A stretch of 64,000 nt of DNA from an uncultured Bacteroidales bacterium (GCA_902779705.1 CACZCR010000009.1:1684-65683); one strand, 5' to 3'; positions 9,624-49,897 are shown, counted from the first letter of the stretch. Numbers and translations: made by a program. Notes: generated by a model not told the origin, from the letters alone.

Positions 9624-10370
9624 ATGCGAAAGGAAGTGAAAATCGGAAAGCTATACATAGGATTGATAGTGTTTTGCGCGCTGGTGTGTGTGCCTACTAC
9701 GGCCCATGCGCAGGCCTTTGCGCGCAGCACCAATTATGTATGTGAATTGGGTTTGCAAGCGGGTGTGGGTTACTATGTTGGTGATGCTGCTCCGTATATC
9801 TTTATGCAGCCTTGTGAGACCTACGGTGCCCACTTCCGCTATAAGTTCACTCCCCGCTGGGCGATCCAGGTCAAGGGCCTGTCACAGCGCATCACCGGAT
9901 GGGAGTACGACGAGGACATGGTGCAGCAAGACACCAAGTGGCAGAACAGGTTGATCAACCTGGATGTGATGGGTGAGTTCAACTTCTTCCGCTTCGGCGG
10001 CGCGGAGTACGACGCACGGGTTAAGCAGATCAGCCCGTATATATTCTTAGGTATAGGTGCCTCGATCCACGGCGGCGCACACGACTACAACACCGACGAG
10101 TGGAAAGAGTACAGCCAGGTGTCGATGTACCTGCCGGTAGGTATAGGACTGAAATGGAAGTTCGCCCCCCGTTGCGGGTTGAACATAGCATGGCAGCACA
10201 ACCTCTATTTCACCGACGGTGTGGAGGGTTCGGCAACACTCCGGGACCTGCACGAGCTGAACGGTCACAACTGGCTGAACTGCGACATCACCGGCCAACT
10301 GACGGCGGCGTTTGTGTTTGAGTTCGCCAAAGAGAAGAAAGTATGCCGCCATTGCGAGAAATGGTATTAG
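9624..10370 (+). CDS. DUF6089-like outer-membrane beta-barrel protein
   Basis: It has a signal peptide (LIVFCALVCVPTTAHAQ), beta-barrel-like alternating aromatic pattern, and the conserved position immediately upstream of uppS-bamA in Bacteroidales. The ATG at 9624 is chosen because the track start (9600) lies inside the promoter. Confidence 0.65.
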   Translation: MRKEVKIGKLYIGLIVFCALVCVPTTAHAQAFARSTNYVCELGLQAGVGYYVGDAAPYIFMQPCETYGAHFRYKFTPRWAIQVKGLSQRITGWEYDEDMVQQDTKWQNRLINLDVMGEFNFFRFGGAEYDARVKQISPYIFLGIGASIHGGAHDYNTDEWKEYSQVSMYLPVGIGLKWKFAPRCGLNIAWQHNLYFTDGVEGSATLRDLHELNGHNWLNCDITGQLTAAFVFEFAKEKKVCRHCEKWY

Positions 10371-10384
10371 GGGATTAGTGGTTA

Positions 10385-11134
10385 ATGAATATGAATTATA
10401 AAGAGCAAATAGACAAAGAGCGGATGCCGCGTCACATCGCCATCGTGATGGATGGTAATGGTCGTTGGGCTAAAAAACAAGGCATGGCACGTGTGTTTGG
10501 TCACCGTCAGGGTGTTCAGACCGTACACGATATCACGGTAGCCGCAGCCGAGTTGGGCATCGAGTATCTGACGTTATACACGTTCTCGACCGAGAACTGG
10601 AACCGTCCCAAAGAGGAAGTGGATGCGCTGATGAACCTGCTGGTGGACACGATCGTCAAAGAGACACCGACGCTGATGGACAACAACGTACGATTGTTGA
10701 CCATAGGTGATATCAACCGCTTGCCGGAGGGTGCGCGTCTGAAGTTTCTGGGCTGTGTAGAGCAGACCAGCAAGAACACGGGCCTTAGCATGGTCATCGC
10801 GCTGAGCTACTCGTCCCGCTGGGAGATCACCCGCGCGATGCAGATAGCCGTAGAGCGTGCTGTCAAAGGTGAGTTGCGTCCCGAAGACATCGACGAACCG
10901 TATGTAGCCTCGCTGATGACGACGGCCCAGATGCCCGATCCGGATCTGCTGATCCGCACCAGTGGCGAGTTGCGTATATCAAACTTCCTACTATGGCAGC
11001 TGGCCTACTCTGAGCTCTATTTCACCGACTGTCTGTGGCCGGAGTTCACCACCGAAGAGCTGTACAAAGCCATCGTGGACTACCAACACCGCGAACGACG
11101 ATTCGGGAAGACCAGTGAACAGGTAATTAAGTAA
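10385..11134 (+). CDS. uppS: Isoprenyl transferase (di-trans,poly-cis-undecaprenyl-diphosphate synthase)
   Basis: [17 protein letters not shown], ...[15 protein letters not shown]..., ...[24 protein letters not shown]. Confidence 0.95.
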
Positions 11135-11136
11135 AA

Positions 11137-11168
11137 ATTGTAGATTGTAGATTGTAGATTGTAAATTG
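11137..11168 (+). repeat. 7-nt tandem array (ATTG)TAGATTG x3 + TAAATTG
   Basis: Seen directly. The TTG start codon of bamA (11166) is the end of the last unit. Confidence 0.9.
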
Positions 11169-13766: not shown

Positions 13767-13823
13767 GACCGCTTCGCTGAAAGAATAAAGACCGTTCACT
13801 ACGTTCACTGAAAGAATAAAGAC
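13766..13823 (+). repeat. Intergenic copy of the GACCGCTTCGCTG(A/T)AAGA word array
   Basis: AAGACCGCTTCGCTGAAAGAATAAAGACCGTTCACTACGTTCACTGAAAGAATAAAGAC, located between bamA and ompH. Confidence 0.85.
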
Positions 13824-14899: not shown

Positions 14900-15046
14900 A
14901 TGGCAGACGGCTATCTGGAGAAACATTACGCCGAATACGAAAAGAAAAAGGCGGAATGGTTGAAAAAGAAAAGCAAATGGTCTAATCGTCAATTGTCTAA
15001 TCGTCAATCTAATTATGGTAAAAGCAATACAAAAGACCCTGCGTGA
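14900..15046 (+). CDS. Small ORF, 48 aa (hypothetical)
   Basis: MADGYLEKHYAEYEKKKAEWLKKKSKWSNRQLSNRQSNYGKSNTKDPA. The ATG lies 1 nt after the ompH stop. The tail is encoded by a 13-nt tandem repeat (14981-15013) and overlaps the MFS start. The N-terminal MADxxLEKHYxxYEKxKxxW motif seems familiar from Bacteroidales small proteins, but that is unverified. Confidence 0.3.
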   Translation: MADGYLEKHYAEYEKKKAEWLKKKSKWSNRQLSNRQSNYGKSNTKDPA

Positions 15047-16385: not shown

Positions 16386-17697
16386 CGAATCGCTCACCGT
16401 CACCACCGACAGCCGGAAGATCACTCCAGGCTGCGTGTTCGTGGGTCTGAAGGGCGAACACTTTGACGGCAACACATTTGTGGCACAGGCACTCGAGATG
16501 GGTGCCGCCTATGCCATCACCGATGCCGAGCAGCCGATGACCTGCTCACAGGCCAAGGACTACAACGGACGTATCATCCGTGTAGACAACAGCCTGCTGG
16601 CGCTGCAAGACCTGGCACGCGCTTGGCGGCGCGAACTGGGACTGCCTATCATCGGCATCACCGGCACCAATGGCAAGACTACCACCAAAGAGCTACTGGC
16701 CGCTGTGCTGTCCACCAAGTATACGCTGCATTATACGCAGGGCAATCTCAACAACCAGATCGGCGTGCCGCTGACCTTATTACAAATGACGCGCGCGCAC
16801 GAGCTGGCTATCGTTGAGATGGGCGCTTCCCACCCGGGCGATATCAAGGAGCTGGTTCAGATAGCCGAACCCAACTACGGCCTGATCACCAATGTGGGAC
16901 GGGCACACCTGCAGGGTTTTGGCTCGTTTGAAGGCGTGATGAAGACCAAAGCCGAACTCTACGACTGGCTCGTAGCACACAACGGCACCATCTTCCGCAA
17001 CGCCGACAATCCGCATCTCAAAGAGATGTATCTTACAGCGAAGCGATCTTACAGCGAAGCGGTCATACAGCAAAGTGGTCTTTCAGGCGAAGCCGGTCTG
17101 CTTTATCACACCGGCACAATGCCGGAGGGCACCCACCTCGTAGGCGGCTATAACGCAGAGAATGTGTCGGCGGCTATCTGTGTCGGTCAGTATTTCGGCG
17201 TGAGCCAAGAGGATGCACTGGCAGCTATCCGCGCCTATGTGCCGTCTAACAACCGCTCACAACTGATGCAGACCGAGCGCAACACCGTCATCGTCGATGC
17301 CTACAACGCCAACCCCACCTCCATGACCGCAGCTATCGAAGCGTTTTATCATACAGCGCCAGCGGTCCTACAGCAAAGCGGTCTTACAGCCGAAGGCGGT
17401 CCTACAGGCGAAGCCGGTCATGAAACAGCCCGCTGTTTCATACTCGGTGCGATGCGTGAATTGGGCGAATACAGTCACCTTGAGCACCAGAACATCGTCA
17501 ACATGCTGCTGGAGCGCAAAGCAGACCTGGTGCTGCTGGTGGGCGAAGAGTATAAAGAGACGACGGCCCCCTACCCGGTGTTTGACAACGTAGATGCACT
17601 CTGTGAGCACCTCCAACAAGAGCCGATCAGCGGATACCGCATCCTGCTGAAGGGTTCACGCTCCAACCAACTAGAGAAAGTAATTCCACTATTGTAA
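16357..17697 (+). CDS. murF: UDP-N-acetylmuramoyl-tripeptide--D-alanyl-D-alanine ligase
   Basis: TTDSRKITPGCVFVGLKGEHFDGN, P-loop GITGTNGKTTTKE, DAYNANPTSM. It contains two repeat-derived segments (see findings). Confidence 0.9.
   Translation: MDWSFLTRNNESLTVTTDSRKITPGCVFVGLKGEHFDGNTFVAQALEMGAAYAITDAEQPMTCSQAKDYNGRIIRVDNSLLALQDLARAWRRELGLPIIGITGTNGKTTTKELLAAVLSTKYTLHYTQGNLNNQIGVPLTLLQMTRAHELAIVEMGASHPGDIKELVQIAEPNYGLITNVGRAHLQGFGSFEGVMKTKAELYDWLVAHNGTIFRNADNPHLKEMYLTAKRSYSEAVIQQSGLSGEAGLLYHTGTMPEGTHLVGGYNAENVSAAICVGQYFGVSQEDALAAIRAYVPSNNRSQLMQTERNTVIVDAYNANPTSMTAAIEAFYHTAPAVLQQSGLTAEGGPTGEAGHETARCFILGAMRELGEYSHLEHQNIVNMLLERKADLVLLVGEEYKETTAPYPVFDNVDALCEHLQQEPISGYRILLKGSRSNQLEKVIPLL
17031..17100 (+). 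repeat. Word array (reverse orientation of GACCGCTTCGCTGTAAGA family) inside murF
   Basis: TCTTACAGCGAAGCGATCTTACAGCGAAGCGGTCATACAGCAAAGTGGTCTTTCAGGCGAAGCCGGTCTG, encoding LTAKRSYSEAVIQQSGLSGEAGL. Confidence 0.85.
17350..17420 (+). repeat. Second word array of the same family inside murF
   Basis: CATACAGCGCCAGCGGTCCTACAGCAAAGCGGTCTTACAGCCGAAGGCGGTCCTACAGGCGAAGCCGGTCA, encoding HTAPAVLQQSGLTAEGGPTGEAGH. Confidence 0.85.
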
Positions 17698-19672: not shown

Positions 19673-21246
19673 ACGAGGTTCAGGTCATAGTTTCGCCTAA
19701 GAAGGCCTACGAACTGGAACAGCAGTTCCGGATCGTCAAGAAGTCTATAGATGCACGTCAGCGCGAGCTGAAGGTGCATCTAACCTTATTAGCCGACGAC
19801 CAAGGCCACTATGTCCCCCTCGACTCACCCCTAACCCCCTCATCCACTAATCCCCTAACCGGTAATCCCTCACCCGTACCCGGTAACCCCTCACCCGTCT
19901 CTATCATCGGCGCCGGTCCGGCGGGACTGTTTGCGGCATTGACGCTTATAGAACACGGCATCAAGCCCATCATCTACGAGCGCGGCAAAGAGGTGGGTGA
20001 GCGCAAGAAAGATATTGCCCTACTCAACCGCAACATGGGCCTCAATCCCGAGTCGAACTACTGCTTTGGCGAAGGAGGCGCCGGCACGTTCTCGGACGGT
20101 AAGCTCTTCTCGCGCTCCAAGAAGCGGGGCAACATGCAACGCGTGATGGAGATCTTCCACTATTTCGGGGCATCGGACCGTGTGCTTTATGAGACCCATG
20201 CACACATAGGCAGCGACCGCCTGCCGTCTATCATTCGCCGCATCCGCGAGTATATCCTCGCCCACGGCGGCGAGATCCATTTCAACACCAAGATCGACTC
20301 TCTCTCCCCCCTACCCCACTCATCCACTAACCCCCTAACCGGTACCCCCTCACCCATCATCCTCGCCATAGGCCACTCCGCCCACGATACCTATCGGATG
20401 TTGGCCAAGGAAGGCGTACAGATGGAGACCAAAGGGTTTGCTATGGGCGTTCGTATTGAGCACCCGCAGTCGCTGATCAATCGGTTGATGTACCATTTGG
20501 GAGAGTCGAAAGACCGCTTCGCTCAAAGAAAAAAGACCGCTTCGCTCAAAGAAGAAAGAAGCCTCATCGATCTGGTGGGTAACGCTTCGTACAGTCTGGT
20601 AACTCAGGTCAATGGACGCGGGGTGTATTCGTTCTGTATGTGTCCCGGCGGCCATATAGTGCCGGCAGGCAGCGAGAACGGGCTTAGGGTGGTCAACGGG
20701 ATGTCTGCCAGCCATCGCAACTCGCCGTATGCCAACTCGGGTATGGTGGTAGAGATACGCCCCGAAGATATACCCGGCGATGATCCGCTACGCGGACTGG
20801 AGTACCAAGAGGCCTTAGAGCGCCTGGCCTTTGAGCACGGAGGTGCTCAAGAGCAGGCTCCGGCGCAGCGCATGCGAGATTTTGTGGAAGGCAAAGCCTC
20901 CAAAGATCTGCCATCGTGCAGCTATCTGCCGGGGCTGGTCAACAGCCGTCTCGATCAGTGGTTACCGGCCCATATAGGACCCAGACTGCAACAGGGTTTT
21001 CGGGATTTTGACCGCAAGTATCCGGGCTTTTTGACCAACGAGGCCGTGATAGTAGGCGTAGAGAGCCGCAGCTCCAGTCCGGTGCGTATCGTACGCGACA
21101 AAGAGAGTATGCAGTCGCTGTCCCATCCCTGGCTCTACCCCTGCGGCGAAGGAGCCGGCTATGCAGGAGGTATCACCTCCTCGGCCCTGGATGGCATCAA
21201 TGCAGCATTGGCAATCATCAAACTATGGAACGAACAATACAACTAA
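19669..21246 (+). CDS. FAD-dependent oxidoreductase (COG2509-like uncharacterised FAD-dependent dehydrogenase)
   Basis: Dinucleotide-binding motif [13 protein letters not shown], ...[14 protein letters not shown]..., C-terminal ...[18 protein letters not shown]. The GTG start overlaps the recA stop. Three repeat-derived segments are present. Confidence 0.8.
19814..19899 (+). repeat. C-rich (G-rich on the opposite strand) ~8-nt word array inside the CDS
   Basis: TCCCCCTCGACTCACCCCTAACCCCCTCATCCACTAATCCCCTAACCGGTAATCCCTCACCCGTACCCGGTAACCCCTCACCCGTC, encoding [28 protein letters not shown] directly before the FAD-binding GxGxxG. Confidence 0.9.
20301..20355 (+). repeat. Second copy of the same C-rich array inside the same CDS
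   Basis: CTCATCCACTAACCCCCTAACCGGTACCCCCTCACCC is nearly identical to 19838-19875. It encodes [19 protein letters not shown]. Confidence 0.9.
20509..20560 (+). repeat. Two perfect 21-nt copies of AAGACCGCTTCGCTCAAAGAA (23-nt period) inside the CDS
   Basis: Seen directly. They encode [16 protein letters not shown]. Confidence 0.9.
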
Positions 21247-21984: not shown

Positions 21985-23346
<1,362 letters not shown>

Positions 23347-23431: not shown

Positions 23432-25321
23432 TTATTCCACCGTCACCGACTTGGCCAGGTTGCGTGGCTGGTCCACATCGCAGCCTTTGACCACGGCTAT
23501 GTGGTACGCCAGCAGCTGCAGCGGGATGACCGTCAACAGCGGCGTGAGGCACTCTTCGGTCTGAGGTATCTCGATCGTATAGTCGGCTATCTTGCTCACC
23601 AACTCGTCGCCTTCACTCACCACCGCGATCACCCTACCCTTGCGGGCTTTGATCTCTTGGATGTTGCTCACCACTTTCTCGTACGTGCCACAGCGCGGAG
23701 CTACTACCACTACCGGCATCTCCTGGCTGATCAGGGCTATAGGTCCATGTTTCATCTCAGCTGCCGGATACCCCTCGGCGTGGATATAAGATATCTCCTT
23801 GAGTTTGAGCGCGCCTTCGAGAGCCACGGGGAAGTTATAACCACGACCCAGATAGATGAAGTTCTGGGCGTAGGAAAAGATCTTAGCGAAGTCGGCTATA
23901 CGCTTGTCCTCGCCTAAGACGCGTTCGATCTTGGTGGGTATCTGGCCCAACTCGCGAACGATACGATTATACCGTTCCTCACTAATCCCCTCATCCGCTG
24001 ATCCACTCATTCGATTTTTCTCCCTACCGATACAGAGTGCCAACATTGTCAGGGCCGTCACTTGGGCGGTGAAAGCCTTGGTTGAAGCCACACCTATCTC
24101 GGGTCCTACGTGCGTATAGCAACCGCTGTCAGAGACGCGTGGGATGGAGGCGCCTACCACATTGCAGATCGAGAAGATAAACGCACCTTTTTCTTTGGCC
24201 AGCTGGATAGCCGCCAAGGTGTCGGCCGTCTCACCGGATTGGGAGATAGCAATCACGACATCATCTTTGTTGATCACCGGCTTGCGGTAGCGGAACTCCG
24301 ACGAGTACTCCACCTCCACCGGTATCCGGGCAAACTCCTCGATGGCGTACATCGCTATCAGGCCTGCGTGCCAACTGGTGCCGCAGGCGGTGATGATGAT
24401 ACGCTTGGCGTTCAAGAACCGCTCCTTGTTGTCGATAAATCCCGACAACGCGATGTTGTCCTGCCGTACGTTGACGCGTCCCCGCATCGAGTCGGCCAGT
24501 GTACGCGGCTGCTCGAAGATCTCCTTGAGCATAAAGTGCGGATAGCCGCCCTTCTCCAACTGACTGAGCGACAACTCCAGCCGCTTGATCTCCGGCGTCT
24601 TCTGCACATTATTGATGGTCGTGATCTCGATCCCTTCATTCTTTAACTCTTTCACTCCTTCACTCTTTAACACGACCACTTCCTCATCTTCGATATAGAT
24701 CACCTTATCGGTGTACTCCACGATAGGGGTGGCGTCGGAGGCCAGGAAATACTCGTCCTCGCCGATGCCGACCACCAGCGGGCTACCTTTACGGGCGGCA
24801 ATCAGGGTGTCGGGATGGGTCTTGTCGAGTATAGCAATCGCATAGGCACCAATCACCTGCTGCAGCGCCAGCTGTACGGCCGTCTTGAGGTCCACATGTT
24901 GGTTGACCTGGGTGTACTCCACCAGCTGCACCAGCACCTCGGTGTCGGTGTCCGACTTGAAGGTGTAGCCCTGCTCCATCAGACCGGCTTTCAAGACGGC
25001 GTAGTTCTCGATGATACCGTTGTGAATGATCGCCAGCCGCTCCGACTCCGAGTAATGCGGATGGGCATTCAGGGTGTTGGGTTCGCCGTGCGTTGCCCAA
25101 CGCGTATGGGCGATACCTATCGTGCCGGTGATATCCTTGTCGGACGCGAATGCTTCCAGTTCGGACACTTTGCCTTTGGCTTTGTAGATGTTTAGTTGGC
25201 CTTGCTCGTTGATGAGCGCCACGCCGGCACTGTCATAACCTCTATACTCGAGACGATGCAGGCCCTTGATCAGGATCGGATACGCCTTGCGCTTGCCGAT
25301 ATATCCTACTATTCCACACAT
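23432..25321 (-). CDS. glmS: Glutamine--fructose-6-phosphate aminotransferase (isomerising)
   Basis: The N-terminal MCGIVGYIG (Ntn Cys), SIS domains and the C-terminal ...DQPRNLAKSVTVE are present. Two repeat-derived segments lie inside. Confidence 0.98.
   Translation of the reverse strand: MCGIVGYIGKRKAYPILIKGLHRLEYRGYDSAGVALINEQGQLNIYKAKGKVSELEAFASDKDITGTIGIAHTRWATHGEPNTLNAHPHYSESERLAIIHNGIIENYAVLKAGLMEQGYTFKSDTDTEVLVQLVEYTQVNQHVDLKTAVQLALQQVIGAYAIAILDKTHPDTLIAARKGSPLVVGIGEDEYFLASDATPIVEYTDKVIYIEDEEVVVLKSEGVKELKNEGIEITTINNVQKTPEIKRLELSLSQLEKGGYPHFMLKEIFEQPRTLADSMRGRVNVRQDNIALSGFIDNKERFLNAKRIIITACGTSWHAGLIAMYAIEEFARIPVEVEYSSEFRYRKPVINKDDVVIAISQSGETADTLAAIQLAKEKGAFIFSICNVVGASIPRVSDSGCYTHVGPEIGVASTKAFTAQVTALTMLALCIGREKNRMSGSADEGISEERYNRIVRELGQIPTKIERVLGEDKRIADFAKIFSYAQNFIYLGRGYNFPVALEGALKLKEISYIHAEGYPAAEMKHGPIALISQEMPVVVVAPRCGTYEKVVSNIQEIKARKGRVIAVVSEGDELVSKIADYTIEIPQTEECLTPLLTVIPLQLLAYHIAVVKGCDVDQPRNLAKSVTVE
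23978..24013 (-). repeat. 8-nt G-rich word array inside glmS
   Basis: Coding strand CGAATGAGTGGATCAGCGGATGAGGGGATTAGTGAG, encoding NRMSGSADEGISEE. Confidence 0.85.
24635..24673 (-). repeat. Short word array inside glmS
   Basis: Top strand TTCATTCTTTAACTCTTTCACTCCTTCACTCTTTAACAC, encoding VLKSEGVKELKNEGIE. Confidence 0.8.
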
Positions 25322-25324
25322 GGT

Positions 25325-25372
25325 TATTTATGATTTCAAATTTCAAATTTATGATTTATGATTTATGATTTA
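25325..25372. repeat. AT-rich 7-nt array (ATGATTT / AAATTTC) between glmS start and dapL stop
   Basis: TATTTATGATTTCAAATTTCAAATTTATGATTTATGATTTATGATTTAA. Confidence 0.9.
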
Positions 25373-26535: not shown

Positions 26536-26592
26536 CACTAATCCACTAACCACTAATCCGGTCATCCACTACCCCACTACTCCACTAACCCG
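26536..26592. repeat. 8-nt word array (TAATCCAC family) spanning the dapL-dapF gap and the dapF 3' end
   Basis: CACTAATCCACTAACCACTAATCCGGTCATCCACTACCCCACTACTCCACTAACCCG. The last dapF codons (...IGLVE-stop) are read from it. Confidence 0.9.
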
Positions 26593-27422
26593 ATCTCCCC
26601 TCTAAACACCTCTTCCGCCGGTCCGGTCATATAGACCTGCTCACCCGGTTGCCATTGGATCGTCAGATCGCCTCCGGGCAGGTGGATCGTCACTTTCTCT
26701 TCGGTCTTGCCCTGACGGATAGCGGCTACGGCGGTAGCACACGCGCCTGTGCCGCAGGCCATTGTCTCGCCGGTGCCGCGCTCCCACACGCGTAGGTCGA
26801 TCTCTTGGCGGTTGCGTATGCACGCAAACTCCACATTCGTGCCTTCGGGGAAGTGAGGATGCGTTCCGATCTTCTCGCCCAGCGTGAGCATCGTGGAGGT
26901 GGTCACCATCCAGTCGTAGAAGAACACCGCATGGGGGTTACCCATGTTCACGTTCCAGAACGGCACCGTGCCGGTCTCCAGATCGATGCTGTTCTCTTCT
27001 ATCCTCGGCGCTCCCATGCCAACCGTCACTTCGCGCACTTTGCCGGCTGTTATATCCAGCCTCAGCTCACGGATGCCGGCCAGGGTGTCGATCGTCATCC
27101 GGGTTTGGGTACACAGGCCGCTCTCGTAGAGGTACTTACCTACGCAGCGGATGGCGTTGCCGCACATCTGCGCTTCGGTGCCGTCGGCGTTGAACATACG
27201 CATGCGGGCATCGGCTTTGTCGGAGGGCAGGATCAGCACCAACCCGTCCGAACCCACTCCGCGGTGGCGGTCCGACACCCTACGTGCCAACTTGGCCAAA
27301 TCGGCCTTGGCTATTATCTCGGCTGTGGTCTTGACAAAACAGTCTATATAGACGTAGTCATTCCCCAAGCCATGCATTTTAATAAAATGTACCATAACAT
27401 TCGCCTTTTCGCCATTCGCCAT
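26577..27422 (-). CDS. dapF: Diaminopimelate epimerase
   Basis: FIKMHGLGNDYVYID, active-site NADGTEAQMCGNAIRC and ...GETMACGTGACA. The start is ambiguous. The ATG at 27422 overlaps the glnA stop (TAATG). The alternative ATG at 27395 gives MVHFIKMHG. Confidence 0.9.
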   Translation of the reverse strand: MANGEKANVMVHFIKMHGLGNDYVYIDCFVKTTAEIIAKADLAKLARRVSDRHRGVGSDGLVLILPSDKADARMRMFNADGTEAQMCGNAIRCVGKYLYESGLCTQTRMTIDTLAGIRELRLDITAGKVREVTVGMGAPRIEENSIDLETGTVPFWNVNMGNPHAVFFYDWMVTTSTMLTLGEKIGTHPHFPEGTNVEFACIRNRQEIDLRVWERGTGETMACGTGACATAVAAIRQGKTEEKVTIHLPGGDLTIQWQPGEQVYMTGPAEEVFRGEIGLVE

Positions 27423-30024: not shown

Positions 30025-30082
30025 TTCCGGAGTAAGACTAACAAAACCAAACTGAACTAAACTAAACAAAACCAAAACGAGT

Positions 30083-33516: not shown

Positions 33517-34575
33517 ATGATCAGACGACTGTTGTTGACTATATTACTTGGTTTGGTTTCGCTGGCGTACACGGGTGCGCGGGCGGCAGAGAACGTGACG
33601 CTGGATATCGACACGGTGGTGATCACGTATCTGTCCACCGAATCAGACACAGCAGCCGGACGATTTGTCTATACGTTCAACTTCAGCCACTCGGAGGACT
33701 ACCCTACCGTGCTGGTAGATGTGATACTGACCGAGCCGATGGCGCTGGTAGAAGGCACCTACAGTCTGGCGAACGATTCGCTGTCCGGACTGCAGCTGGC
33801 GAGGAACCAGAACGATTTTGAAGCTAACCTGTTCTATGGCTCTGCCTACTACTGGGCCGACGCCTCGCTGACATTGAAGCAAGAGGGCGAACTATGGCGC
33901 TACACGATGCGCATGCGCGACGAGAGCGGCAACCGATACGGGTTCTCATTCTCGATGCGTCCGTACATCAACCTCTACCCCCAGCCCACCAACGGCAAGG
34001 ACAAGCCCTACGAGACCGAAGAGAAGACCATAACGATCCAGCGGTTTGTGGTCGATACGCTGCTGTGGACCGACGAGACAGTGGACAAAGACGGCATCAT
34101 CGACATCGTGATGACCTGCAAGCAATCAACCCAGTTCCGCCGGCCGTATATACACCTGGGTATGTACACCGACCAGCACTATCCGGCAGCCGGCACGTAT
34201 ATGTTGGCCAAGACCGAGGAGAACGGCACGTTCAGCTCATCACTGGGTATGTACGGCAACGTGATCATCCCGTGCTATGTGGCAGTGGTGCACGACGACG
34301 GCTATGTGACGGACATATGGTTTCTGACCAACGGCACGATACAGCTGAGCTACGACACAGCCGGACGACCGATAGTGAGCGGCGAGTGTTGGTCGTACTT
34401 CGGCTCAAGCATCACGTTTTACTACCAGCCGATGGCGCAGGGATTGGAGAATGAGCGGATGAGTGGATTAGGAGATGAGGGGATGAGTGGATGCCGCAAG
34501 GTGTTGCGGGATGGGCAGATGCTGATCGAGCGTGGGGAGAAAGTATATACGATAGAAGGACAATTGATAAAATAA
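33517..34575 (+). CDS. Secreted hypothetical protein, same family (C-terminal motif)
   Basis: MIRRLLLTILLGLVSLAYTGARA signal peptide. It ends ...CRKVLRDGQMLIERGEKVYTIEGQLIK. The track start (TTG 33505) lies inside the -7 box, so the ATG at 33517 is preferred. Confidence 0.7.
   Translation: MIRRLLLTILLGLVSLAYTGARAAENVTLDIDTVVITYLSTESDTAAGRFVYTFNFSHSEDYPTVLVDVILTEPMALVEGTYSLANDSLSGLQLARNQNDFEANLFYGSAYYWADASLTLKQEGELWRYTMRMRDESGNRYGFSFSMRPYINLYPQPTNGKDKPYETEEKTITIQRFVVDTLLWTDETVDKDGIIDIVMTCKQSTQFRRPYIHLGMYTDQHYPAAGTYMLAKTEENGTFSSSLGMYGNVIIPCYVAVVHDDGYVTDIWFLTNGTIQLSYDTAGRPIVSGECWSYFGSSITFYYQPMAQGLENERMSGLGDEGMSGCRKVLRDGQMLIERGEKVYTIEGQLIK
34441..34492 (+). repeat. 8-nt G-rich word array inside the CDS
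   Basis: GGATTGGAGAATGAGCGGATGAGTGGATTAGGAGATGAGGGGATGAGTGGATGC, encoding GLENERMSGLGDEGMSGC just before the C-terminal motif. Confidence 0.9.
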
Positions 34576-37707: not shown

Positions 37708-40651
37708 CCAGCGCCTTGTTGCCAAAGCCGTCGATATACATCTCTAAGGGATGAGTGAGACGGATGTGGCGCACCAGATCGGTTTCTTCGATAGCCTCTA
37801 AGGCGTCGAGGGAACCGATTTCATATACATCCCCCGGCCGTGCCCACGGGTCGATATTCAGATAACCCACATTGAAGGAGGTGAGGTTCTGGAAGAAGTG
37901 ACTACCCTGAGAGGGTTCGATACGGAAGTTTTCGAGGCTGCACTCGGCGATCGCCTTGGCCTCGCTGATATCGCCCCACTGGACGGGCACACCGAGTGTC
38001 GGGATCTGCGAACCCCAACGGCCGTAGCCTATCAGCAGGTACTGACGCCCCTCTTGACGTAGCTTGGCGTTCCACTGGCGGATGGTGTCGGCCATCTCGC
38101 GCGTGCGTAATATATCAAAGGTGTCTTGACGCAGGTAGATGATATCCGTCACATCCTCTATCTGTCCCACGCCTAAGGCGTTGCCTGAGATGAGGAAAGC
38201 GCCATGGGTATCTATCTTATCCCAATCGACCTTAGCGGTCAGCGAATCGGCCGAGATAGGCCGTATCTGCAGCACATGGAAGATCTGAGGTTCGCGCTCA
38301 AGGTTAACTGCGAACTCTATCTCTACCGGGCACTTGATCTCCTGCTGCGCCATCTCAAGCAACTGGCGAATGATGTCTGCCAGCGGGAAGGTGTTGAACT
38401 TCAACTGCGGCGCAAAAGTCACGACACGCGGTCCGTCGGGATAGCACGAGTCGACCATACGCATGTTCTCGCGGTCATAGGTAGAGGCGATCATCTTAAG
38501 GCTCTCAAACTGGCCGCACTCATGTATAGGGAAGCGCTCGAGGTTGATGGCATCATCGATCGATGTCTTGAACCGCTCGGGGCTGAGCGAGAGGGCCAAC
38601 ATCGACTGCTGGGTCTCACGCATTGCCAGATCGACCGTTGAGGTTTGGAGCACGTTCTTGGGGTACTTGGGACTGAAGCGGAGCACTTGCTCGCCATCCA
38701 CCACCACCTTGCCTAAGCCGTACGCTACCTTGACGATGCCGTCTTCGGGTTTCTCTTTGCCGACCGGGTAGAAATTGACGCTACGCGCCACACCGGAGAT
38801 GACGGGGAAGTAGTAGTTACCCTCCTGCTCGCCACAGACCTCCTGGAGCACGATGGCCATCTTCTCCTCAGAGAGCACGTTGCCCGTAGAGGTGATATAG
38901 CCACGCGATGCCGCGAAGTAGACCGAGGCATAGACCGACTTGATGGCCTTGCTGAGCAGACGAAGCTGCTGGTCCTCGTTCTCGGTGTTGGGTATCATAT
39001 AGGTGCTATAGACACCGGCAAAAGGTTGATAGTAGGAGTCCTCGAGCTTGGAGGATGAGCGCACCGCCAGCGGCTTGTTGGTGACGCGGATGAAATGGCG
39101 CAAGGCCGCACGCATCTCCAATGGCAGCGCGGCTGCCACAAACTCGGACAGTATCTCGTCGTCCGAGAGGTCGGCGTTGATGACATACTGCAGACCGTTG
39201 TCATGCACAAAGCGGTCGAACCACTCGGTGGTCAACACCATCGTTCGCGGCACTAACACACGTACACCCTCCCAACGGTCATAGAGGTCATTCTTCTGGA
39301 GCACATGGTTGAGGAACGCCAGTCCCCTACCCTTGCCGCCCATCGGTCCGTCGCCTACGCGCGCAAACCAGATAGTGTCGTTGTAGGTGTCGGGCGAGTA
39401 TTTGGCCACAACGCCGAGGGCTTGGTTGATACGGTAGTCATGGATGAGGCGGATATTGGTCTGGCGGATGTTCTCGATATCGGTCTCGTCTTGGATCTTA
39501 AGGATGTTGACCTGTCTGCCGATAGCGAACAGTCCGCGGGCAAAGAGCCACTTGGAGAGGTAGTTGTTGTCGCTTAGTCGGCGGAAAGCGGCCGGAGAAA
39601 TAGAGGATATGATTCGCTCAAATCCCTCCAGATCGGAGGCACGGGCTATCTCCTTGCCGGTTCGCGGGTCGCGGGCGATGAAGTCACCGAACCCGAACTC
39701 CGACTCGATATACTCGCTCACCTCTTGGGTCAGGGTTTTGGACGATTTGATGACAAAGCCCACCTTGAGTCTATTGGCCGTGGCACGCATCGACTCTTGG
39801 GACGACTGCATCAGGAACGGCATCGTGGGGTTATCATCGCGGATGAGTTGACACAGGTCGACTCCGGCATCCAGTTTCTCGGAACTGGACGGATCGCCCT
39901 TATGGAGCACAAAGCCGATGTCGGAGATGACACCGATGATATTCTTACTATAACGTTGGTAGAGCTCTACTGCCTCGTCGTAACAGGTGGCCAGTAACAT
40001 CTTAGGTCGCGCCCGCTTACGCAGCAACTGCTGTTTCTCGTTGAGCGCGTCGCGGATGGCTATGTTGTTCTGCCGGAGCACCAGCTTGTAGAGCAGCGGC
40101 AGATAGGTGGAGTAATAGCGGACTGAGTCTTCGACCAGCAGGATCGCCCGCACACCCTCGGTGAGGATATCGTGCTCCGCGTTCATGCGGTCCTCGATGA
40201 GCTTGATGATGGCGATGATCAGGTCGGTGGAGTTGTTCCAAGTGAAGAAATAGTCGATATCGCTCTTTTCATGCTGCTCGATGCGGCGGTAGATCTCCTT
40301 GCTGAACGCTGACAGCAGGACGATCGGGCAGTTGGGCACCAGCTGCTTGGCCTCTTTGGCAAAGTCAAACACATCCAGCTCGCCCGCGCTGTACATGGTC
40401 AGGATCAGGTCAAACGGCTGACCGCTCATTCCATCATCCGCTAACCCCTTAATCCGCTCTAAGGCCTCACACGTTGTCTCCGCGCGGGTGATAGACGGCG
40501 GATTGGAGATATTGAGTTCGGCGTACTCTTGCGCTATCTGCACGTCTATACGGCCGTCCTCTTCCAGCGCAAAACTGTCGTAGTTGTTGCACACCAGCAG
40601 GATGCGCCGCACGCGCTTCTCCATCAATGATGTATAATTGTTGGTTTCCAT
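37685..40651 (-). CDS. PEP/pyruvate-binding (PPDK_N-type) domain protein with N-terminal receiver-like domain
   Basis: 988 aa. The N-terminus RRILLVCNNYDSFALEEDGRI... resembles a CheY-like fold. The central GGKGRGLAFLN ATP-grasp/PPDK_N motif is present. The 3' end overlaps the mutase gene by 23 nt in convergent orientation. Confidence 0.75.
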   Translation of the reverse strand: METNNYTSLMEKRVRRILLVCNNYDSFALEEDGRIDVQIAQEYAELNISNPPSITRAETTCEALERIKGLADDGMSGQPFDLILTMYSAGELDVFDFAKEAKQLVPNCPIVLLSAFSKEIYRRIEQHEKSDIDYFFTWNNSTDLIIAIIKLIEDRMNAEHDILTEGVRAILLVEDSVRYYSTYLPLLYKLVLRQNNIAIRDALNEKQQLLRKRARPKMLLATCYDEAVELYQRYSKNIIGVISDIGFVLHKGDPSSSEKLDAGVDLCQLIRDDNPTMPFLMQSSQESMRATANRLKVGFVIKSSKTLTQEVSEYIESEFGFGDFIARDPRTGKEIARASDLEGFERIISSISPAAFRRLSDNNYLSKWLFARGLFAIGRQVNILKIQDETDIENIRQTNIRLIHDYRINQALGVVAKYSPDTYNDTIWFARVGDGPMGGKGRGLAFLNHVLQKNDLYDRWEGVRVLVPRTMVLTTEWFDRFVHDNGLQYVINADLSDDEILSEFVAAALPLEMRAALRHFIRVTNKPLAVRSSSKLEDSYYQPFAGVYSTYMIPNTENEDQQLRLLSKAIKSVYASVYFAASRGYITSTGNVLSEEKMAIVLQEVCGEQEGNYYFPVISGVARSVNFYPVGKEKPEDGIVKVAYGLGKVVVDGEQVLRFSPKYPKNVLQTSTVDLAMRETQQSMLALSLSPERFKTSIDDAINLERFPIHECGQFESLKMIASTYDRENMRMVDSCYPDGPRVVTFAPQLKFNTFPLADIIRQLLEMAQQEIKCPVEIEFAVNLEREPQIFHVLQIRPISADSLTAKVDWDKIDTHGAFLISGNALGVGQIEDVTDIIYLRQDTFDILRTREMADTIRQWNAKLRQEGRQYLLIGYGRWGSQIPTLGVPVQWGDISEAKAIAECSLENFRIEPSQGSHFFQNLTSFNVGYLNIDPWARPGDVYEIGSLDALEAIEETDLVRHIRLTHPLEMYIDGFGNKALVRFPAKP
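40421..40460 (-). repeat. 8-nt G-rich word array inside the CDS
   Basis: Coding strand GAGCGGATTAAGGGGTTAGCGGATGATGGAATGAGCGGT, encoding ERIKGLADDGMSG. Confidence 0.85.
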
Positions 40652-41040: not shown

Positions 41041-41084
41041 CCGTTTACGTGTCGTTAACGTCTCGTTTACGTGTCGTTTACGAG
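41041..41084 (+). repeat. 11-nt-period array CGTT(T/A)ACG(T/A)(G/C)T x4
   Basis: CCGTTTACGTGTCGTTAACGTCTCGTTTACGTGTCGTTTACGAG. Confidence 0.9.
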
Positions 41085-49005: not shown

Positions 49006-49044
49006 CAGTGCAATTTGAGTATTCACTTTAAAAAAGACAATACT

Positions 49045-49320
49045 ATGACAATGACGATTAATGCTGTAAACTTTGAGATGGCTAAGCCTCTTGAAGATTT
49101 CATTGAGAAGAAAATGAGCCGTTTTGGCCGTCACATCAACGCCGACGACAAAGTAGAGATTCGTATGTCGGTCATCAAACCGCAGACCAATGCCAACAAG
49201 GAAGTTAAGATGCGTATAGCCGGTATGTTTGCCGAGAAAACAGCCGACACTTTTGAGGAGGCTATCGACGGCTGCCTGTCCGCATTAGAGACACAGATCG
49301 AGCGCCGCAAGAACGCATAA
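49045..49320 (+). CDS. hpf: Ribosome hibernation-promoting factor / RaiA family protein
   Basis: 91 aa, MTMTINAVNFEMAKPLEDFIEKKMSRFGRH...FEEAIDGCLSALETQIERRK is typical of the short HPF family. The ATG at 49045 is chosen because the longer ORF runs through the promoter. Confidence 0.85.
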   Translation: MTMTINAVNFEMAKPLEDFIEKKMSRFGRHINADDKVEIRMSVIKPQTNANKEVKMRIAGMFAEKTADTFEEAIDGCLSALETQIERRKNA

Positions 49321-49342
49321 GATGGCCTGCTAAGGGCTAAAG

Positions 49343-49377
49343 AAAGCACCTTTCCTATTCGGGGAAGGTGCTTTTTT
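49343..49377. terminator. Bidirectional hairpin terminator between hpf and nrdG
   Basis: AAAGCACCTT tcctattcgggg AAGGTGCTTTTTT. The nrdG stop codon lies within the loop. Confidence 0.6.
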
Positions 49378-49897
49378 GAAACCGTGCCGTGTCGTCAACC
49401 CAGCCATCGGGTGTACGCTTGTAGAAGCGCTGGTTGGTGGTGGGTGACTTGAGTCCGCCGAGCGATTCGATATACGGGCCGAGTTTGACAAAGTCGTAAG
49501 GGAGACCGCTACGCTGTAAGACCGTTATCACTGTTAGACCGTTATCACTGTTAGACCGCTTCGCTGTAAGACTTTCCGGCAAAGCCGGGCGACCGCTATA
49601 CCACGCGGTCCGTAACCCGTAACCCGTTACCCGTAGCCCCTTCACCCACTCTGCCAAGCGGGCTACTTCTTCGGGTTCGGCATCGCCGCCCATGAAAGCC
49701 ACGCAGGTGATCATCGCTCCATAACGATCGATCAGGCCGCCGAGCAGCTCTTCGGTCAGCGGTTCGCCTATATCCTCGGCCAAGTGCTGGCTGTGGCAAC
49801 CGGGGCAGTGGCAGGGACAGTTAGAGAGATTAAGGGCGAGTGTTACCTCGCCCGGAATCTCTTGAAAAACAATATCGAAAGATGCTACTTTTAACAT
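49355..49897 (-). CDS. nrdG: Anaerobic ribonucleoside-triphosphate reductase activating protein (radical SAM)
   Basis: MLKVASFDIVFQEIPGEVTLALNLSNCPCHCPGCHSQ..., ...FMGGDAEP..., ...KLGPYIESLGGLKSPTTNQRFY. The ATG at 49897 lies 1 nt from the nrdD stop. The gene contains repeat-derived segments. Confidence 0.88.
   Translation of the reverse strand: MLKVASFDIVFQEIPGEVTLALNLSNCPCHCPGCHSQHLAEDIGEPLTEELLGGLIDRYGAMITCVAFMGGDAEPEEVARLAEWVKGLRVTGYGLRTAWYSGRPALPESLTAKRSNSDNGLTVITVLQRSGLPYDFVKLGPYIESLGGLKSPTTNQRFYKRTPDGWVDDTARFQKSTFPE
49502..49572. repeat. 17-nt-period array of the GACCGCTTCGCTGTAAGA family inside nrdG
   Basis: GAGACCGCTACGCTGTAA GACCGTTATCACTGTTA GACCGTTATCACTGTTA GACCGCTTCGCTGTAA GAC. 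Confidence 0.9.
49610..49647. repeat. 7-nt array (CCGTAAC)n inside nrdG
   Basis: CCGTAACCCGTAACCCGTTACCCGTAGCCCCTTCACCC, encoding (reverse strand) ...VKGLRVTGYGLRT.... Confidence 0.9.

Follow-up and report, generated by a model that had tools for sequence, protein, structure and literature searches.

Degenerate short-period tandem arrays in intergenic spacers and, in frame, within housekeeping genes of an uncultured Bacteroidales bacterium

Results

Short-period arrays are abundant in the window

The window analysed here is a 64-kb stretch of DNA from an uncultured Bacteroidales bacterium, which carries, among other genes, uppS, bamA, murF, recA, glmS, dapF, nrdD and nrdG, as well as genes for enolase, an FAD oxidoreductase, a type III glutamine synthetase (GSIII, glnA) and a PEP-utilising enzyme. 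NCBIfam confirmed murF, glmS, dapF, nrdG and nrdD, and GSIII was identified by its match to glutamine synthetase 3o6x (8e-280). Family matches of the PEP-utilising enzyme and the FAD oxidoreductase were weak, partial and sub-threshold.

Using TRF with a filter for period 5–30, at least 2.5 copies and a score of at least 30, 28 short-period arrays (1081 nt) were found in the window, compared to 1.6 ± 1.3 (maximum 6) in thirty block-wise dinucleotide shuffles of the same DNA. About 25 of the 28 fall within 10365–49647, in agreement with the original prediction of at least 25 degenerate arrays. Two additional degenerate 8-nt arrays, below TRF detection, were seen by eye at 40418–40460 (PEP-utilising enzyme) and 29530–29579 (GSIII). 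Most units measure 7 or 8 nt and some 11 or 16–23 nt, and the arrays are degenerate (68–96% matches by TRF). Across 426 kb of DNA from the clade, periods of 7 nt (65) and 8 nt (31) are the commonest among 173 arrays and unit diversity is high, with dozens of distinct heptamers.

Word families had been predicted to recur in either orientation, and they do. Allowing up to three mismatches, TACAGCGAAGCGGTC has 11 matches in 64 kb (1.75 expected) and GGATTAGTGGATGAGT has 12 in the window (0.48 expected), each on both strands. Different arrays of the window have 13-mers in common in 15 pairs, compared to approximately 0.07 expected. In an Rfam scan of the window, a single tRNA reached the gathering threshold and no array matched a curated covariance model.

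Arrays form much of the intergenic DNA

Arrays cover 15% of intergenic bases, compared to 1.4% of CDS bases, and seven short co-directional intercistronic spacers consist almost wholly of array, ending at the next start codon. The window was compared with two close strains, L004 (99% nucleotide identity) and L006 (92–97%). The intergenic arrays, to which no strand is assigned, are as follows.

10365..10384: G-rich 8-nt words (GGGGATTAGTGGTTA); whole 14-nt spacer from the DUF6089 gene stop to the uppS start
11137..11168: ATTGTAG, 4.6 copies; 29 of 31 nt of the uppS–bamA spacer; not in L006
13767..13810: two 21–23-nt units (AAGACCGCTTCGCTGAAAGAAT...) directly 3' of the bamA stop; 16-nt family, antisense form
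14976..15013: 15-nt unit AATGGTCTAATCGTC, 2.5 copies; ends 1 nt 5' of the MFS transporter start codon
18624..18663: 16-nt unit AATAAATCAATACAAC, 2.4 copies; 35 of 42 nt of the DUF8429–recA spacer
21985..22028: TAAATCG heptamers ending 10 nt 5' of the enolase start; another array in L004 and L006
23402..23430: CTTTCGC heptamers (GGCGAAR on the minus strand) directly 3' of the glmS stop
25326..25373: ATTTATG and ATTTCAA heptamers; 44 of 48 nt of the spacer preceding the glmS start
26536..26588: CACTAATC, 6.8 copies (G-rich family, minus strand); fills the spacer from the dapF stop to the aminotransferase start
27398..27423: CATTCGC heptamers; 24 of 26 nt of the spacer from the GSIII stop to the dapF start
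29793..29837: 11-nt unit TTATCCTATGG, 4.1 copies, between divergently oriented genes
30040..30076: AACTA-type 5-nt array ending 6 nt 5' of the start codon of an LRR protein gene
32009..32065: TGAGATT, 8.1 copies, from the stop codon of the same LRR gene onwards
41042..41082: 11-nt unit CGTTTACGTGT, 3.7 copies
59220..59333: two adjoining 11-nt arrays (GCATATATTAA-like; CGTTCGCATCT, 4.4 copies), beyond 10365–49647

The array at 26536..26588 overlaps the last dapF codons and the stop. The array at 27398..27423 was judged to lie upstream of the likely dapF start because the long ORF matches the profile only from residue 26 onwards. When start-proximal leaders were folded, seven of eight were no more stable than shuffles (MFE 0 to −5 kcal/mol); one leader and one post-stop array were more structured than shuffles.

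Arrays lie in frame within conserved genes

About 11 arrays lie within genes, namely murF, glmS, glnA, nrdG and those for the FAD oxidoreductase, the PEP-utilising enzyme and a hypothetical protein. The prediction that arrays reside in ORFs of conserved enzymes thus stands for the first six, while dapF, which it had also named, is only abutted by arrays.

17030..17103, plus strand: murF site 1, four 16-nt units (TCTTACAGCGAAGCGG family) encoding YLTAKRSYSEAVIQQSGLSGEAGLL
17347..17442, plus strand: murF site 2, 16–18-nt units encoding PAVLQQSGLTAEGGPTGEAG; the 3' end is a 10-bp perfect palindrome (ATGAAACAGC/GCTGTTTCAT)
19828..19898, plus strand: FAD oxidoreductase site 1, C-rich 8-nt words encoding a 24-residue peptide
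20307..20340, plus strand: FAD oxidoreductase site 2, C-rich 8-nt words encoding a 13-residue peptide
20509..20559, plus strand: FAD oxidoreductase site 3, 23-nt unit, 2.2 copies, encoding a 17-residue peptide; antisense form of the 16-nt family
23985..24010, minus strand: glmS site 2, G-rich 8-nt words encoding MSGSADEGI
24633..24680, minus strand: glmS site 1, 8-nt words encoding EVVVLKSEGVKELKNEG
29530..29579, minus strand: GSIII N-terminal array, six 8-nt words encoding MDDRITGLVNERVSGL
34441..34493, plus strand: 356-aa hypothetical protein, near the C-terminus, G-rich 8-nt words (24-nt super-unit) encoding GLENERMSGLGDEGMSG
40418..40460, minus strand: PEP-utilising enzyme, N-terminal part, five degenerate G-rich 8-nt words (ERIKGLADDGMSGQ)
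49503..49575, minus strand: nrdG, 16–17-nt units of the murF family encoding LTAKRSNSDNGLTVITVLQRSGL
49610..49639, minus strand: nrdG, CCGTAAC heptamers, 4.3 copies, encoding GLRVTGYGLR

The peptides ERMSGL, ERVSGL, DEGMSG, DDGMSG and STNPLTG, attributed to the arrays beforehand, were all found in the translations. MurF site 2 corresponds to a loop of approximately six residues in about 60 other Bacteroidales; AlphaFold pLDDT is below 50 for residues 334–355, and the loop is predicted to be disordered. The three FAD oxidoreductase sites have 69–76 variants each among 121 relatives, and at site 2 copy number differs by 24 nt between strains. In glmS, 24 nt of site 2 are missing from L006, and GlmS of E. 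coli lacks an equivalent segment, while at site 1 L006 carries a GGTTACG-type array instead. The arrays had been proposed to be lineage-specific insertions, and they are indeed absent from distant orthologues of MurF, GlmS and the FAD oxidoreductase. However, two are replacements rather than additions: FAD oxidoreductase site 1 takes the place of an ancestral segment (120 relatives compared) and GlmS site 1 that of ancestral residues (comparison with E. coli). As judged from these sequence comparisons, the arrays within genes are insertions or replacements specific to the lineage and located at hypervariable loops.

Arrays vary between close strains and preserve the reading frame

Nearly all structural differences between the window and L004 or L006 are located at arrays, and near-identical strains have another array, or none, at a given site. 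In L006 the DUF6089–uppS spacer with its array is missing, and after bamA a hairpin and a G-rich array stand in place of the units at 13767..13810. The 16-nt unit that occupies the recA spacer here belongs to the family found upstream of eno in both L004 and L006. The spacer upstream of glmS shows a 7-nt copy-number difference in L004. Copy-number polymorphism, proposed as a check of the original prediction, was found: between strains 92–99% identical, indels come in steps of 7 and 14 nt in spacers and of 18, 24 (3 × 8) and 48 nt (3 × 16) within genes.

Indel length is divisible by three in all 11 CDS cases, compared to 6 of 17 intergenic ones, and murF is in frame throughout approximately 20 lineages, as expected if the arrays keep their host frames open. 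Multiple-of-three net lengths are as expected under selective filtering of variants; since the in-gene net lengths are of this kind (24, 48 and 18 nt), an open frame needs no special mechanism. For each of the two murF sites, three or more alleles were found, in varied combinations, within a single population of at least 92% identity. At site 2, in the few pairs compared, filled and empty alleles differ without a clean junction or duplication.

Array families are dispersed across genes and genomes

A single 23-nt pattern with 20 specified bases, representing the 16-nt family, was found in at least 120 metagenome stretches, with 65 of 87 sites falling within long ORFs. Sixty host ORFs match 80 Pfam families, with the array in both orientations, so the proposal that repeat families enter many unrelated genes is supported. 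In host ORFs the family encodes the peptide ...LTAKRSYSEAVLQRSG... Extents of 15, 31, 47 and 63 nt (one to four units) are about equally common, up to a maximum of approximately 175 nt. In one sister strain, an allele at murF site 1 shares 30 of 33 nt with the intergenic array at 14976..15013, which lies 2 kb upstream in the window.

Non-triplet arrays within ORFs occur at 1.4–1.6 per 10 kb here, compared to 0.24 in other Bacteroidales; in-frame non-triplet arrays are thus about 6-fold enriched in the Paludibacteraceae clade of the window. Arrays as a whole reach approximately 2.5 per 10 kb in many other Bacteroidales loci, compared to approximately 0.25 in window shuffles; genome-wide density is an extrapolation from loci around murF and from metagenome matches.

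Units resembling GGATTAGT and TACAGCGAAGCGGTC persist in species that share only about 65–73% identity in MurF.

Arrays have the hallmarks of neither palindromic nor terminally repeated elements

Ten array segments were folded as single-stranded DNA on both strands and gave z scores of +0.05 to +2.56 relative to shuffles; for most, 150–200 of 200 shuffles folded at least as well, and no hairpins were found. At 86 metagenome sites, the best flank inverted repeat averaged 5.16 nt, compared to 5.44 nt in displaced controls, and flank inverted repeats of at least 8 nt occurred at 1% of sites, compared to 5% of controls. Being without hairpins and without terminal inverted repeats, the arrays are unlike RPEs, MITEs and REPs.

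A few flank inverted repeats were seen within the window, a pattern that is not general across the 86 metagenome sites.

The window also contains a RAYT-like HUH gene (43880–45022; E = 5.6e-10, below the curated cutoff) with its own flanking repeats, whose motif ATGGCGGATAC bears no relation to the units of the arrays. L006 has a dispersed hairpin element, GACACCCCCCnnCCCCCTCTCAGAGGGGGAG, with G-rich arrays immediately after it at two sites; because G-rich arrays adjoin it, a mobile carrier for some arrays is possible.

Several known repeat classes were considered. REP and REPIN sequences are extragenic palindromes of 20–40 nt that frequently form inverted pairs and have a cognate RAYT gene; this assignment was rejected, as the arrays are non-palindromic and often intragenic and the motif of the RAYT-like gene is not theirs. 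Assignment to MITEs was rejected on the terminal inverted repeats, no commoner than in displaced controls. Contingency loci are near-perfect SSRs that switch genes on and off by frameshift, typically surface or restriction–modification genes; they were rejected since the hosts here are housekeeping genes, CDS indels are all multiples of three, murF stays in frame and the units are degenerate. DNA uptake sequences (DUS/USS) are motifs of 9–12 nt that occur about once per kb in both orientations and are recognised by the competence machinery; in the 64 kb there are only about 11 family matches. AAGCGGTC resembles the Pasteurellaceae USS, presumably by coincidence.

Discussion

Relation to known repeats

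Heptamer-type long SSRs with units of 5–11 nt were described by Mrazek et al. (2007), as cited in PMC4679880 and PMC4692102. Examples are the TAACTGA repeats of Beggiatoaceae, cyanobacteria and five Bacteroidetes including Paludibacter (PMC4679880), for which a regulator-binding role was proposed, and the GGGNATC heptamers of Xanthomonas and Nostoc and the cyanobacterial STRR heptamers (PMC4692102); heptamer-rich long SSRs are described as slippage-prone (PMC4679880, PMC4692102). The window arrays share several traits with this group: they are tandem direct repeats dominated by heptamers, exceed chance, lie between co-directional ORFs near starts and stops, and vary strongly in length and sequence among close relatives, with slippage proposed for copy-number change in both. 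They differ in that many degenerate unit families stand side by side, in that a large share lies in frame within housekeeping genes, and in that families pass between spacers and genes. The intergenic arrays are therefore a known kind of repeat, and the original view that no mechanism had been described in Bacteroidales does not extend to them, given the TAACTGA repeats of Paludibacter (PMC4679880). It does hold for the abundant in-frame non-triplet arrays, of which no description was found in the literature and which appear to be new.

The initial analogy to Rickettsia palindromic elements (RPEs; PMC10969869) is apt only as regards outcome, since these too lie in frame in many unrelated metabolic and housekeeping genes and encode a family-specific peptide at tolerated positions. 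However, RPEs are palindromic with a fixed length of approximately 100–150 bp, whereas the present arrays, in another phylum, are runs of about 15–150 nt of 7–23-nt direct repeats with variable unit number, fold worse than shuffles and have no flanking inverted repeats; classification as RPEs fails on hairpins and fixed length. BrickBuilt of Porphyromonas gingivalis (PMC4596501), also in the Bacteroidales, has dispersed loci with varying numbers of tandem units of approximately 22–23 nt, but it possesses a leader and tail and IS-matching terminal inverted repeats and is strictly intergenic, whereas the present arrays have no inverted termini and enter coding sequence. In SPDIR (bioRxiv 10.1101/2023.11.22.568220), a short ectopic sequence replaces or adds DNA via microhomology annealing, without element ends or transposase, and leaves clustered polymorphism of variable size, much as proposed here; unlike the present arrays, it is a rare mutation class observed in the laboratory and is not known to be linked to repeat families or a lineage-wide pattern. 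The replacements at FAD oxidoreductase site 1 and GlmS site 1 would be consistent with SPDIR-type patch replacement at microhomologies, and we infer that SPDIR may be involved in the present arrays. The small dispersed repeats (SDRs) reported for Nostoc and its relatives (Elhai et al. 2008, Genome Res 18:1484; reference 43 of PMC3116915) are reportedly sequences of 21–27 nt without an obvious transposase. Like the present arrays, they are said to occur sometimes in genes with the frame kept, and to be linked to tandem heptamer arrays; reportedly they are single discrete units nested in conserved context, whereas the dispersed entity here is a degenerate tandem array.

A model for array turnover, and its alternatives

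We propose, with moderate confidence, that the arrays are hypermutable micro- and minisatellites shaped by slippage, recombination, microhomology copying between loci and selection of in-frame copies. The source lineage is a ruminant-gut Paludibacteraceae whose chromosome carries a few dispersed families of degenerate, structure-poor direct-repeat arrays. Slipped-strand mispairing would gain or lose whole units and homologous recombination between strains would shuffle whole array alleles, each in keeping with the patterns observed. Array sequence may also be copied from locus to locus at short microhomologies, as suggested by the 13-mers that arrays share, the match of an intergenic array to a murF allele, the 16-nt unit upstream of both recA and eno and the dispersal of its family over metagenomes, although the shared stretches are short (11–33 nt); this would seed new sites and overwrite old arrays. 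Fork template switching or SPDIR-like ectopic single-strand integration could provide the route, with no transposase. Selection would then leave in genes only stop-free copies of multiple-of-three length in tolerant loops and termini, which is the pattern seen; nearly anything would be tolerated between co-directional genes, so that arrays become the intercistronic spacer itself. Slippage alone leaves the persistence of GGATTAGT-like and TACAGCGAAGCGGTC-like units unexplained, and the model possibly lacks some drive or function.

An alternative is that the arrays are retained for a function, the intergenic ones as unstructured, A/T-rich translation-initiation leaders or spacers in a phylum that lacks Shine–Dalgarno pairing, or as regulator sites, and the in-protein ones as flexible linkers. 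The seven spacers that are nearly all array up to the next start codon, the unstructured state of seven of eight leaders, the predicted disorder at MurF site 2 and the similar placement of TAACTGA and GGGNATC repeats (PMC4679880, PMC4692102) speak for this account, which is compatible with our model as a reason for retention. As an explanation of the arrays it seems unlikely, since arrays of the same spacer are wholly different or missing in strains 92–99% identical, two segments are more structured than shuffles, and one DNA family occupies spacers and genes alike and in either orientation, which indicates that it is the DNA that spreads rather than an RNA or peptide that is selected. Insertion of non-autonomous mobile elements (RPE, MITE or REPIN type) by a dedicated enzyme, such as a RAYT-like HUH protein or a transposase encoded elsewhere, with the tandem units as internal minisatellites as in BrickBuilt, would accommodate a single family in ORFs of 80 Pfam families and has a precedent within the order in the 23-nt minisatellite of a Porphyromonas MITE (PMC4596501), as well as in the in-frame entry of RPEs into unrelated genes (PMC10969869); the RAYT-like gene with its own repeats and the L006 hairpin preceding G-rich arrays point the same way. 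We nevertheless consider it quite unlikely, as the arrays fold worse than shuffles, flank inverted repeats do not exceed displaced controls, length varies over one to four or more units, host sequence was replaced in some events (FAD oxidoreductase site 1, GlmS site 1) and ATGGCGGATAC is unrelated to the array units.

It is decidedly doubtful that each array arose by slippage on the spot, with shared words reflecting convergent selection or a mutational or compositional bias, for example a polymerase footprint of 7–8 nt, rather than copying. Heptamers do predominate here, as in many unrelated bacteria (PMC4692102), units are highly diverse and density is raised in many other Bacteroidales loci too; yet the 20 specified bases recurring in unrelated genes of at least 120 metagenome stretches, the near-identity of an intergenic array and a murF-internal allele, and the excess of shared 13-mers argue against it, convergence being an implausible source of such sharing for longer units. 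Dedicated templated synthesis, whether by a primase-polymerase, a telomerase-like activity or a reverse transcriptase that copies an RNA template, has indirect evidence in its favour: certain units persist across species, the degeneracy resembles templated stuttering and some G-rich words are like telomere repeats. It is highly improbable: the window contains no reverse transcriptase or candidate template RNA (the Rfam scan gave one tRNA), the unit families are many and unrelated, and the copy-number changes resemble ordinary unit slippage. An assembly or chimera artefact, conceivable for a metagenome-assembled genome and for repeats, which are known to assemble poorly, is effectively refuted and has a negligible probability, as identical arrays recur in assemblies made independently in different studies and from different samples, all host ORFs are intact in approximately 20 lineages and a sequencing read is much longer than the arrays.

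Under the model of hypermutable, microhomology-copied satellites that we favour, the outcome would be essential enzymes with strain-variable, low-complexity loops, and the arrays would represent a little-described route for rapid change of bacterial proteins and operon spacers.

Short-period arrays in the window

We searched the window for arrays with Tandem Repeats Finder (TRF; period 5–30 nt, at least 2.5 copies, score at least 30). Under this filter the 64 kb hold 28 arrays totalling 1081 nt, compared to 1.6±1.3 (maximum 6) in 30 dinucleotide-preserving shuffles made in 2-kb blocks. Essentially every place at which the original prediction had named a short-period array was recovered. Two more degenerate 8-nt arrays, in the PEP-utilising enzyme and at the N-terminus of the type III glutamine synthetase (GSIII), are sub-threshold for TRF and legible by eye. 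The claim that word families are repeated in either orientation was also borne out: with up to three mismatches, the 16-nt unit TACAGCGAAGCGGTC gave 11 matches in the window (1.75 expected) and the G-rich words GGATTAGTGGATGAGT gave 12 (0.48 expected), each on both strands. Since identical array sequences recur in independent assemblies of other samples, the arrays are not assembly artefacts.

NCBIfam identifies murF, glmS, dapF, nrdG and nrdD, and the GSIII glnA is identified by a match to glutamine synthetase 3o6x (8e-280). Family matches for the PEP-utilising enzyme and the FAD-dependent oxidoreductase (FADox) are weak, partial and sub-threshold only. All peptides quoted in the original prediction are found in the translations. 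Arrays had also been placed inside dapF; instead, they abut this gene at both ends.

Intergenic arrays

In the window, 519 of 3431 intergenic bases (15%) belong to arrays, compared to 552 of 39027 coding bases (1.4%). Seven short co-directional spacers consist almost entirely of array (14/14, 29/31, 44/61, 35/42, 44/48, 41/46 and 24/26 nt), which extends to the next start codon. Among 173 arrays in 426 kb of window-plus-clade DNA, the period is most often 7 nt (65 arrays), followed by 8 nt (31), 9 nt (18) and 11 nt (14). Loci from around murF in other Bacteroidales are rich in such arrays too, with ~2.5 per 10 kb as against ~0.25 in shuffles of the window. Heptamer-rich long simple sequence repeats (SSRs) have been described between aligned ORFs and near starts and stops, are very variable among close relatives, and have been proposed to arise by polymerase slippage with a footprint of ~7 nt (PMC4692102; PMC4679880); TAACTGA repeats are recorded in Paludibacter (PMC4679880). 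In view of this picture and of the density in other Bacteroidales, the intergenic arrays are a new instance of the known heptamer-type long SSR, ordinary, though dense.

Spacer arrays turn over completely between the window and its near-identical sister strains, which argues that their exact sequence is not strongly constrained. Start-proximal arrays were mostly unstructured in fold analysis, a weak trend with exceptions. The host phylum is not known to rely on Shine-Dalgarno pairing. Arrays that form a whole intercistronic spacer could matter for translation initiation, a secondary idea compatible with the above. The TAA stops of glmS and GSIII are directly followed by TGGCGAAnGGCGAnnGGC... 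heptamers (23402–23430 and 27398–27423, minus strand). The 16-nt units share the GCGAAG core of such heptamers, a hint that the two families are related.

Arrays within genes keep the reading frame

murF (16357–17697) has two hypervariable sites, with flanks that are 72–97% identical among the relatives compared. At one MurF position, relatives carry YLTAKRSYSEAVIQQSGLSGEAGLL, LESSINGPIVNRPIVN, LGDLGNLGALGSL, MVNGKMVNAQMVNGKMVN or nearly nothing. In one population (identity 92% or higher), three or more alleles occur at each site, in varying combinations. Because site 2 is a conserved loop of ~6 residues in ~60 other Bacteroidales, the array found there is a lineage-specific insertion. FADox has three sites with 69–76 distinct variants each among 121 relatives, and an array-free baseline of 488 aa compared to 525 aa in the window. 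In glmS, 24 nt encoding part of MSGSADEGI are absent from the sister-strain locus L006 and without counterpart in E. coli GlmS, while site 1 carries a different array family in L006. In-gene arrays had been predicted to add residues to their hosts; two of them instead replace ancestral residues.

Strains were compared over two syntenic 21-kb loci, L004/L005 (~99% nucleotide identity) and L006 (92–97%). Between the window and L004 or L006, 11 of 11 coding indel clusters are multiples of three (24, 24, 51, 30, 9 etc.), compared to 6 of 17 intergenic clusters. The frame was thus retained in every case, as predicted. At the DNA level the steps are whole units summing to multiples of three: 3 × 8 = 24 nt was seen, as were 3 × 16 = 48 nt between two other strains (P0009 and P0005) and a single 18-nt unit between the window and a third (P0002). 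That all coding indels are multiples of three argues that the in-gene arrays are likely to be translated. A dedicated frame-keeping mechanism is unnecessary, since selection on the translated sequence would leave the same pattern. The AlphaFold model of MurF is moderate (mean pLDDT 72) and serves only to mark the array-encoded residues 236–244 and 334–355 as low-confidence segments (pLDDT below 50).

Around residues ~245–255, MurF of this Paludibacteraceae clade is also missing ~25–35 residues (…GLYVSGxVxxxSPFLxFxW…xVQTxLI), which almost every other aligned Bacteroidales MurF possesses. This is a lineage-specific deletion, adjoining array site 1.

Non-triplet-period arrays inside ORFs number 1.56 per 10 kb in the window and 1.43 in its clade (MurF at least 64% identical), compared to 0.42 in distant Paludibacteraceae and 0.24 in other Bacteroidales; their abundance sets one Paludibacteraceae clade apart. 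The nearest named relatives of MurF and FADox are from Paludibacteraceae metagenome-assembled genomes (MAGs), mainly of ruminant or other herbivore gut samples, judged by isolate and sample names.

Unit families are dispersed among unrelated genes

The arrays, 2.06% of the window, have 15 pairs of 13-mers common to different arrays, compared to ~0.07 expected at random. The 16-nt unit lies upstream of recA in the window and upstream of eno in L004 and L006, and in a sister strain murF site 1 carries an allele that matches, in 30 of 33 nt, an intergenic array of the window 2 kb upstream. A 23-nt pattern drawn from the 16-nt family, with 20 bases specified, occurs in at least 120 metagenome stretches. 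Among the matches listed, long ORFs contain 65 of 87 sites (80 loci). Of these 65, about 55 are in sense orientation, three 16-nt units encoding the 16 residues ...GLTAKRSYSEAVLQRSG...; the others are antisense and encode ...KTASLKDRFAER..., as at FADox site 3 in the window. The antisense 16-nt unit contains TAA and occurs only mutated and stop-free. Sixty host ORFs, again among the matches listed, match 80 different Pfam families, including PcrB/deaminase, Dus, SpoU, DAHP and EPSP synthases, biotin ligase, TilS-type PP-loop, ABC transporters and HAD. A protein-level search with a 48-aa array peptide gave two matches only and was uninformative. The G-rich family is too degenerate for such a scan, a 16-mer with up to two mismatches finding three sites in 2.26 Mb of fetched loci. 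Because spacers and genes alike contain the same DNA, and in either orientation, we infer that the DNA itself spreads, rather than a selected peptide or RNA.

Other repeats and neighbouring elements

Features in the window and, where stated, in L006
295–1647: DUF4143 ATPase gene
~1763–1924, 2402–2448, 9583–9607, 29688, 33471–33500, 52049–52059: 13-mers shared upstream of different genes
2509–3534: ORF6N-domain gene
2737–2847: 39-nt unit, 2.8 copies, in the ORF6N-domain gene
4193–7246 (+): MmeI/Eco57I-type restriction-modification fusion
7474–7822: 60-nt unit, 5.8 copies, blades of a '6-fold beta flower' protein (PF21786)
40652–44000: low-GC island (38–43% GC)
41322–43163 (−): GmrSD-type restriction endonuclease
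43684–43878, 45042–45052: repeats flanking the RAYT-like gene
43880–45022 (−): gene for a RAYT-like protein of 380 aa
L006 7415–7470, 17033–17105 (equivalent window ~13767, ~23347): hairpin element followed by G-rich array
L006 12191–12363: larger related element, between DUF8429 and recA

The exact intergenic 13-mers shared upstream of different genes (TTGAAATGTGCAA, TACAACAAATATT, TTTAATTTGCATA and others) resemble a promoter or leader module that recurs, and not tandem arrays. The 60-nt and 39-nt repeats have codon periods and lie outside the short-unit array phenomenon. The low-GC island, which carries the GmrSD-type gene, and the separate region of the restriction-modification fusion, with the ORF6N-domain and ATPase genes nearby, probably represent defence or mobile islands on either side of the housekeeping block.

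A full-profile match (E = 5.6e-10) links the RAYT-like protein to the REP-associated tyrosine transposase model; its 39 bits fall short of the curated cutoff (80). An HUH-like MPDHFHGIL motif is present, Pfam and PDB sequence searches gave no match, and the protein may belong to a divergent RAYT family with a C-terminal extension. A 65-nt tandem repeat (2.7 copies, 96%) and ATGGCGGATAC/ATGGCGGATGC motifs on both sides flank the gene in what resembles a REP-RAYT-REP arrangement. We rejected a link to the arrays, as ATGGCGGATAC is unrelated to any array unit.

Just past the bamA and eno stops, L006 carries a dispersed hairpin element, GACACCCCCCnnCCCCCTCTCAGAGGGGGAGATTCGG, which leads straight into G-rich 8-nt arrays. 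Hairpin elements of this type are absent from the window and the other fetched loci. In four loci of other Bacteroidales (L084, L059, L086 and L032; Prevotellaceae, Phocaeicola and Bacteroides), some intergenic arrays are followed by their own inverted copy (for example AGTTTTTA... then ...TAAAAACT, or CGCAAAGAG... then ...CTTTGCGCC), a layout expected to fold into long, imperfect hairpins. Pairing of this kind is absent from the window arrays. The loci also have 22-nt minisatellites that recall BrickBuilt.

Origin of the arrays

The original prediction likened the arrays to Rickettsia palindromic elements (RPE; PMC10969869). The likeness holds for the outcome, in-frame residence in unrelated genes, and fails for the anatomy. 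Folded as single strands, the arrays scored z +0.05 to +2.56 against shuffles; no better and mostly worse than these on both strands, they are not palindromes, nor is the 16-nt family a GCGAAGC-type mini-hairpin. MITE-like terminal inverted repeats were likewise rejected: at 86 metagenome sites among the matches listed, the best inverted repeat in the flanks averaged 5.16 nt compared to 5.44 nt in displaced controls, and the few 8–12-nt inverted repeats flanking arrays in the window are not general. Array length is variable, and the few pairs of empty and filled alleles compared, at murF site 2, showed neither clean ends nor target duplication. We therefore rejected membership of RPE, MITE/BrickBuilt and REP/REPIN. 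An Rfam scan of the window found one tRNA and no other known RNA. Nor are the arrays contingency loci, since their host genes have housekeeping roles and every allele seen was in frame.

The comparisons revealed unit-wise change in copy number, the signature of slippage, together with re-assortment of array alleles among strains, array sequence shared between unrelated loci, replacement as well as insertion of host sequence, and an in-frame, stop-free filter in genes. The most likely reading is that copying from other arrays at microhomologies seeds and overwrites arrays; this would run through template switching at stalled forks or through ectopic single-strand integration, as in SPDIR microindels (bioRxiv 10.1101/2023.11.22.568220; 10.1101/2024.07.02.601687). 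Degenerate direct repeats would offer many annealing registers and low secondary structure would leave strands free to anneal, two properties that would make arrays both good donors and good targets. A carrier element or dedicated system that spreads the arrays is kept, at low probability, because certain units are maintained across species with a MurF identity of only ~65–73% and because G-rich arrays in L006 adjoin the dispersed hairpin element. It is improbable that unit families (for example TACAGCGAAGCGGTC, in ORFs matching those 80 Pfam families, and the G-rich 8-nt words) spread by a specific process and not by generic slippage and illegitimate recombination. Such a process might be the recurrent integration, at replication forks, of abundant cellular single-stranded DNA or of reverse transcriptase-derived oligonucleotides; DNA uptake or repair might instead favour a drive sequence. 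If this were true, the arrays would be a new class of end-less, transposase-free mobile repeat that rewrites loops of essential proteins.

Significance

Altogether, the predicted phenomenon is genuine: abundant in-frame non-triplet arrays, belonging to dispersed families and forming multi-allelic loops in essential enzymes of one clade, stand between long SSRs and RPE-like repeats. No account of them turned up in the literature that could be searched. The arrays are ready strain-typing markers for uncultured rumen Bacteroidales, and call for caution in MAG annotation, orthology-based length filters and start-codon calling. They also offer a natural system for studying transposase-free copying of short ectopic sequences, insertion-tolerant protein positions and the rate of locus turnover. 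The essential enzymes MurF, GlmS, NrdG and GSIII bear strain-specific low-complexity loops, and the same DNA families make the spacers that frame translation of the next gene. If this reading is correct, micro- and minisatellite families would be a general source of variation in bacterial protein length and operon spacers, beyond phase-variation switches.
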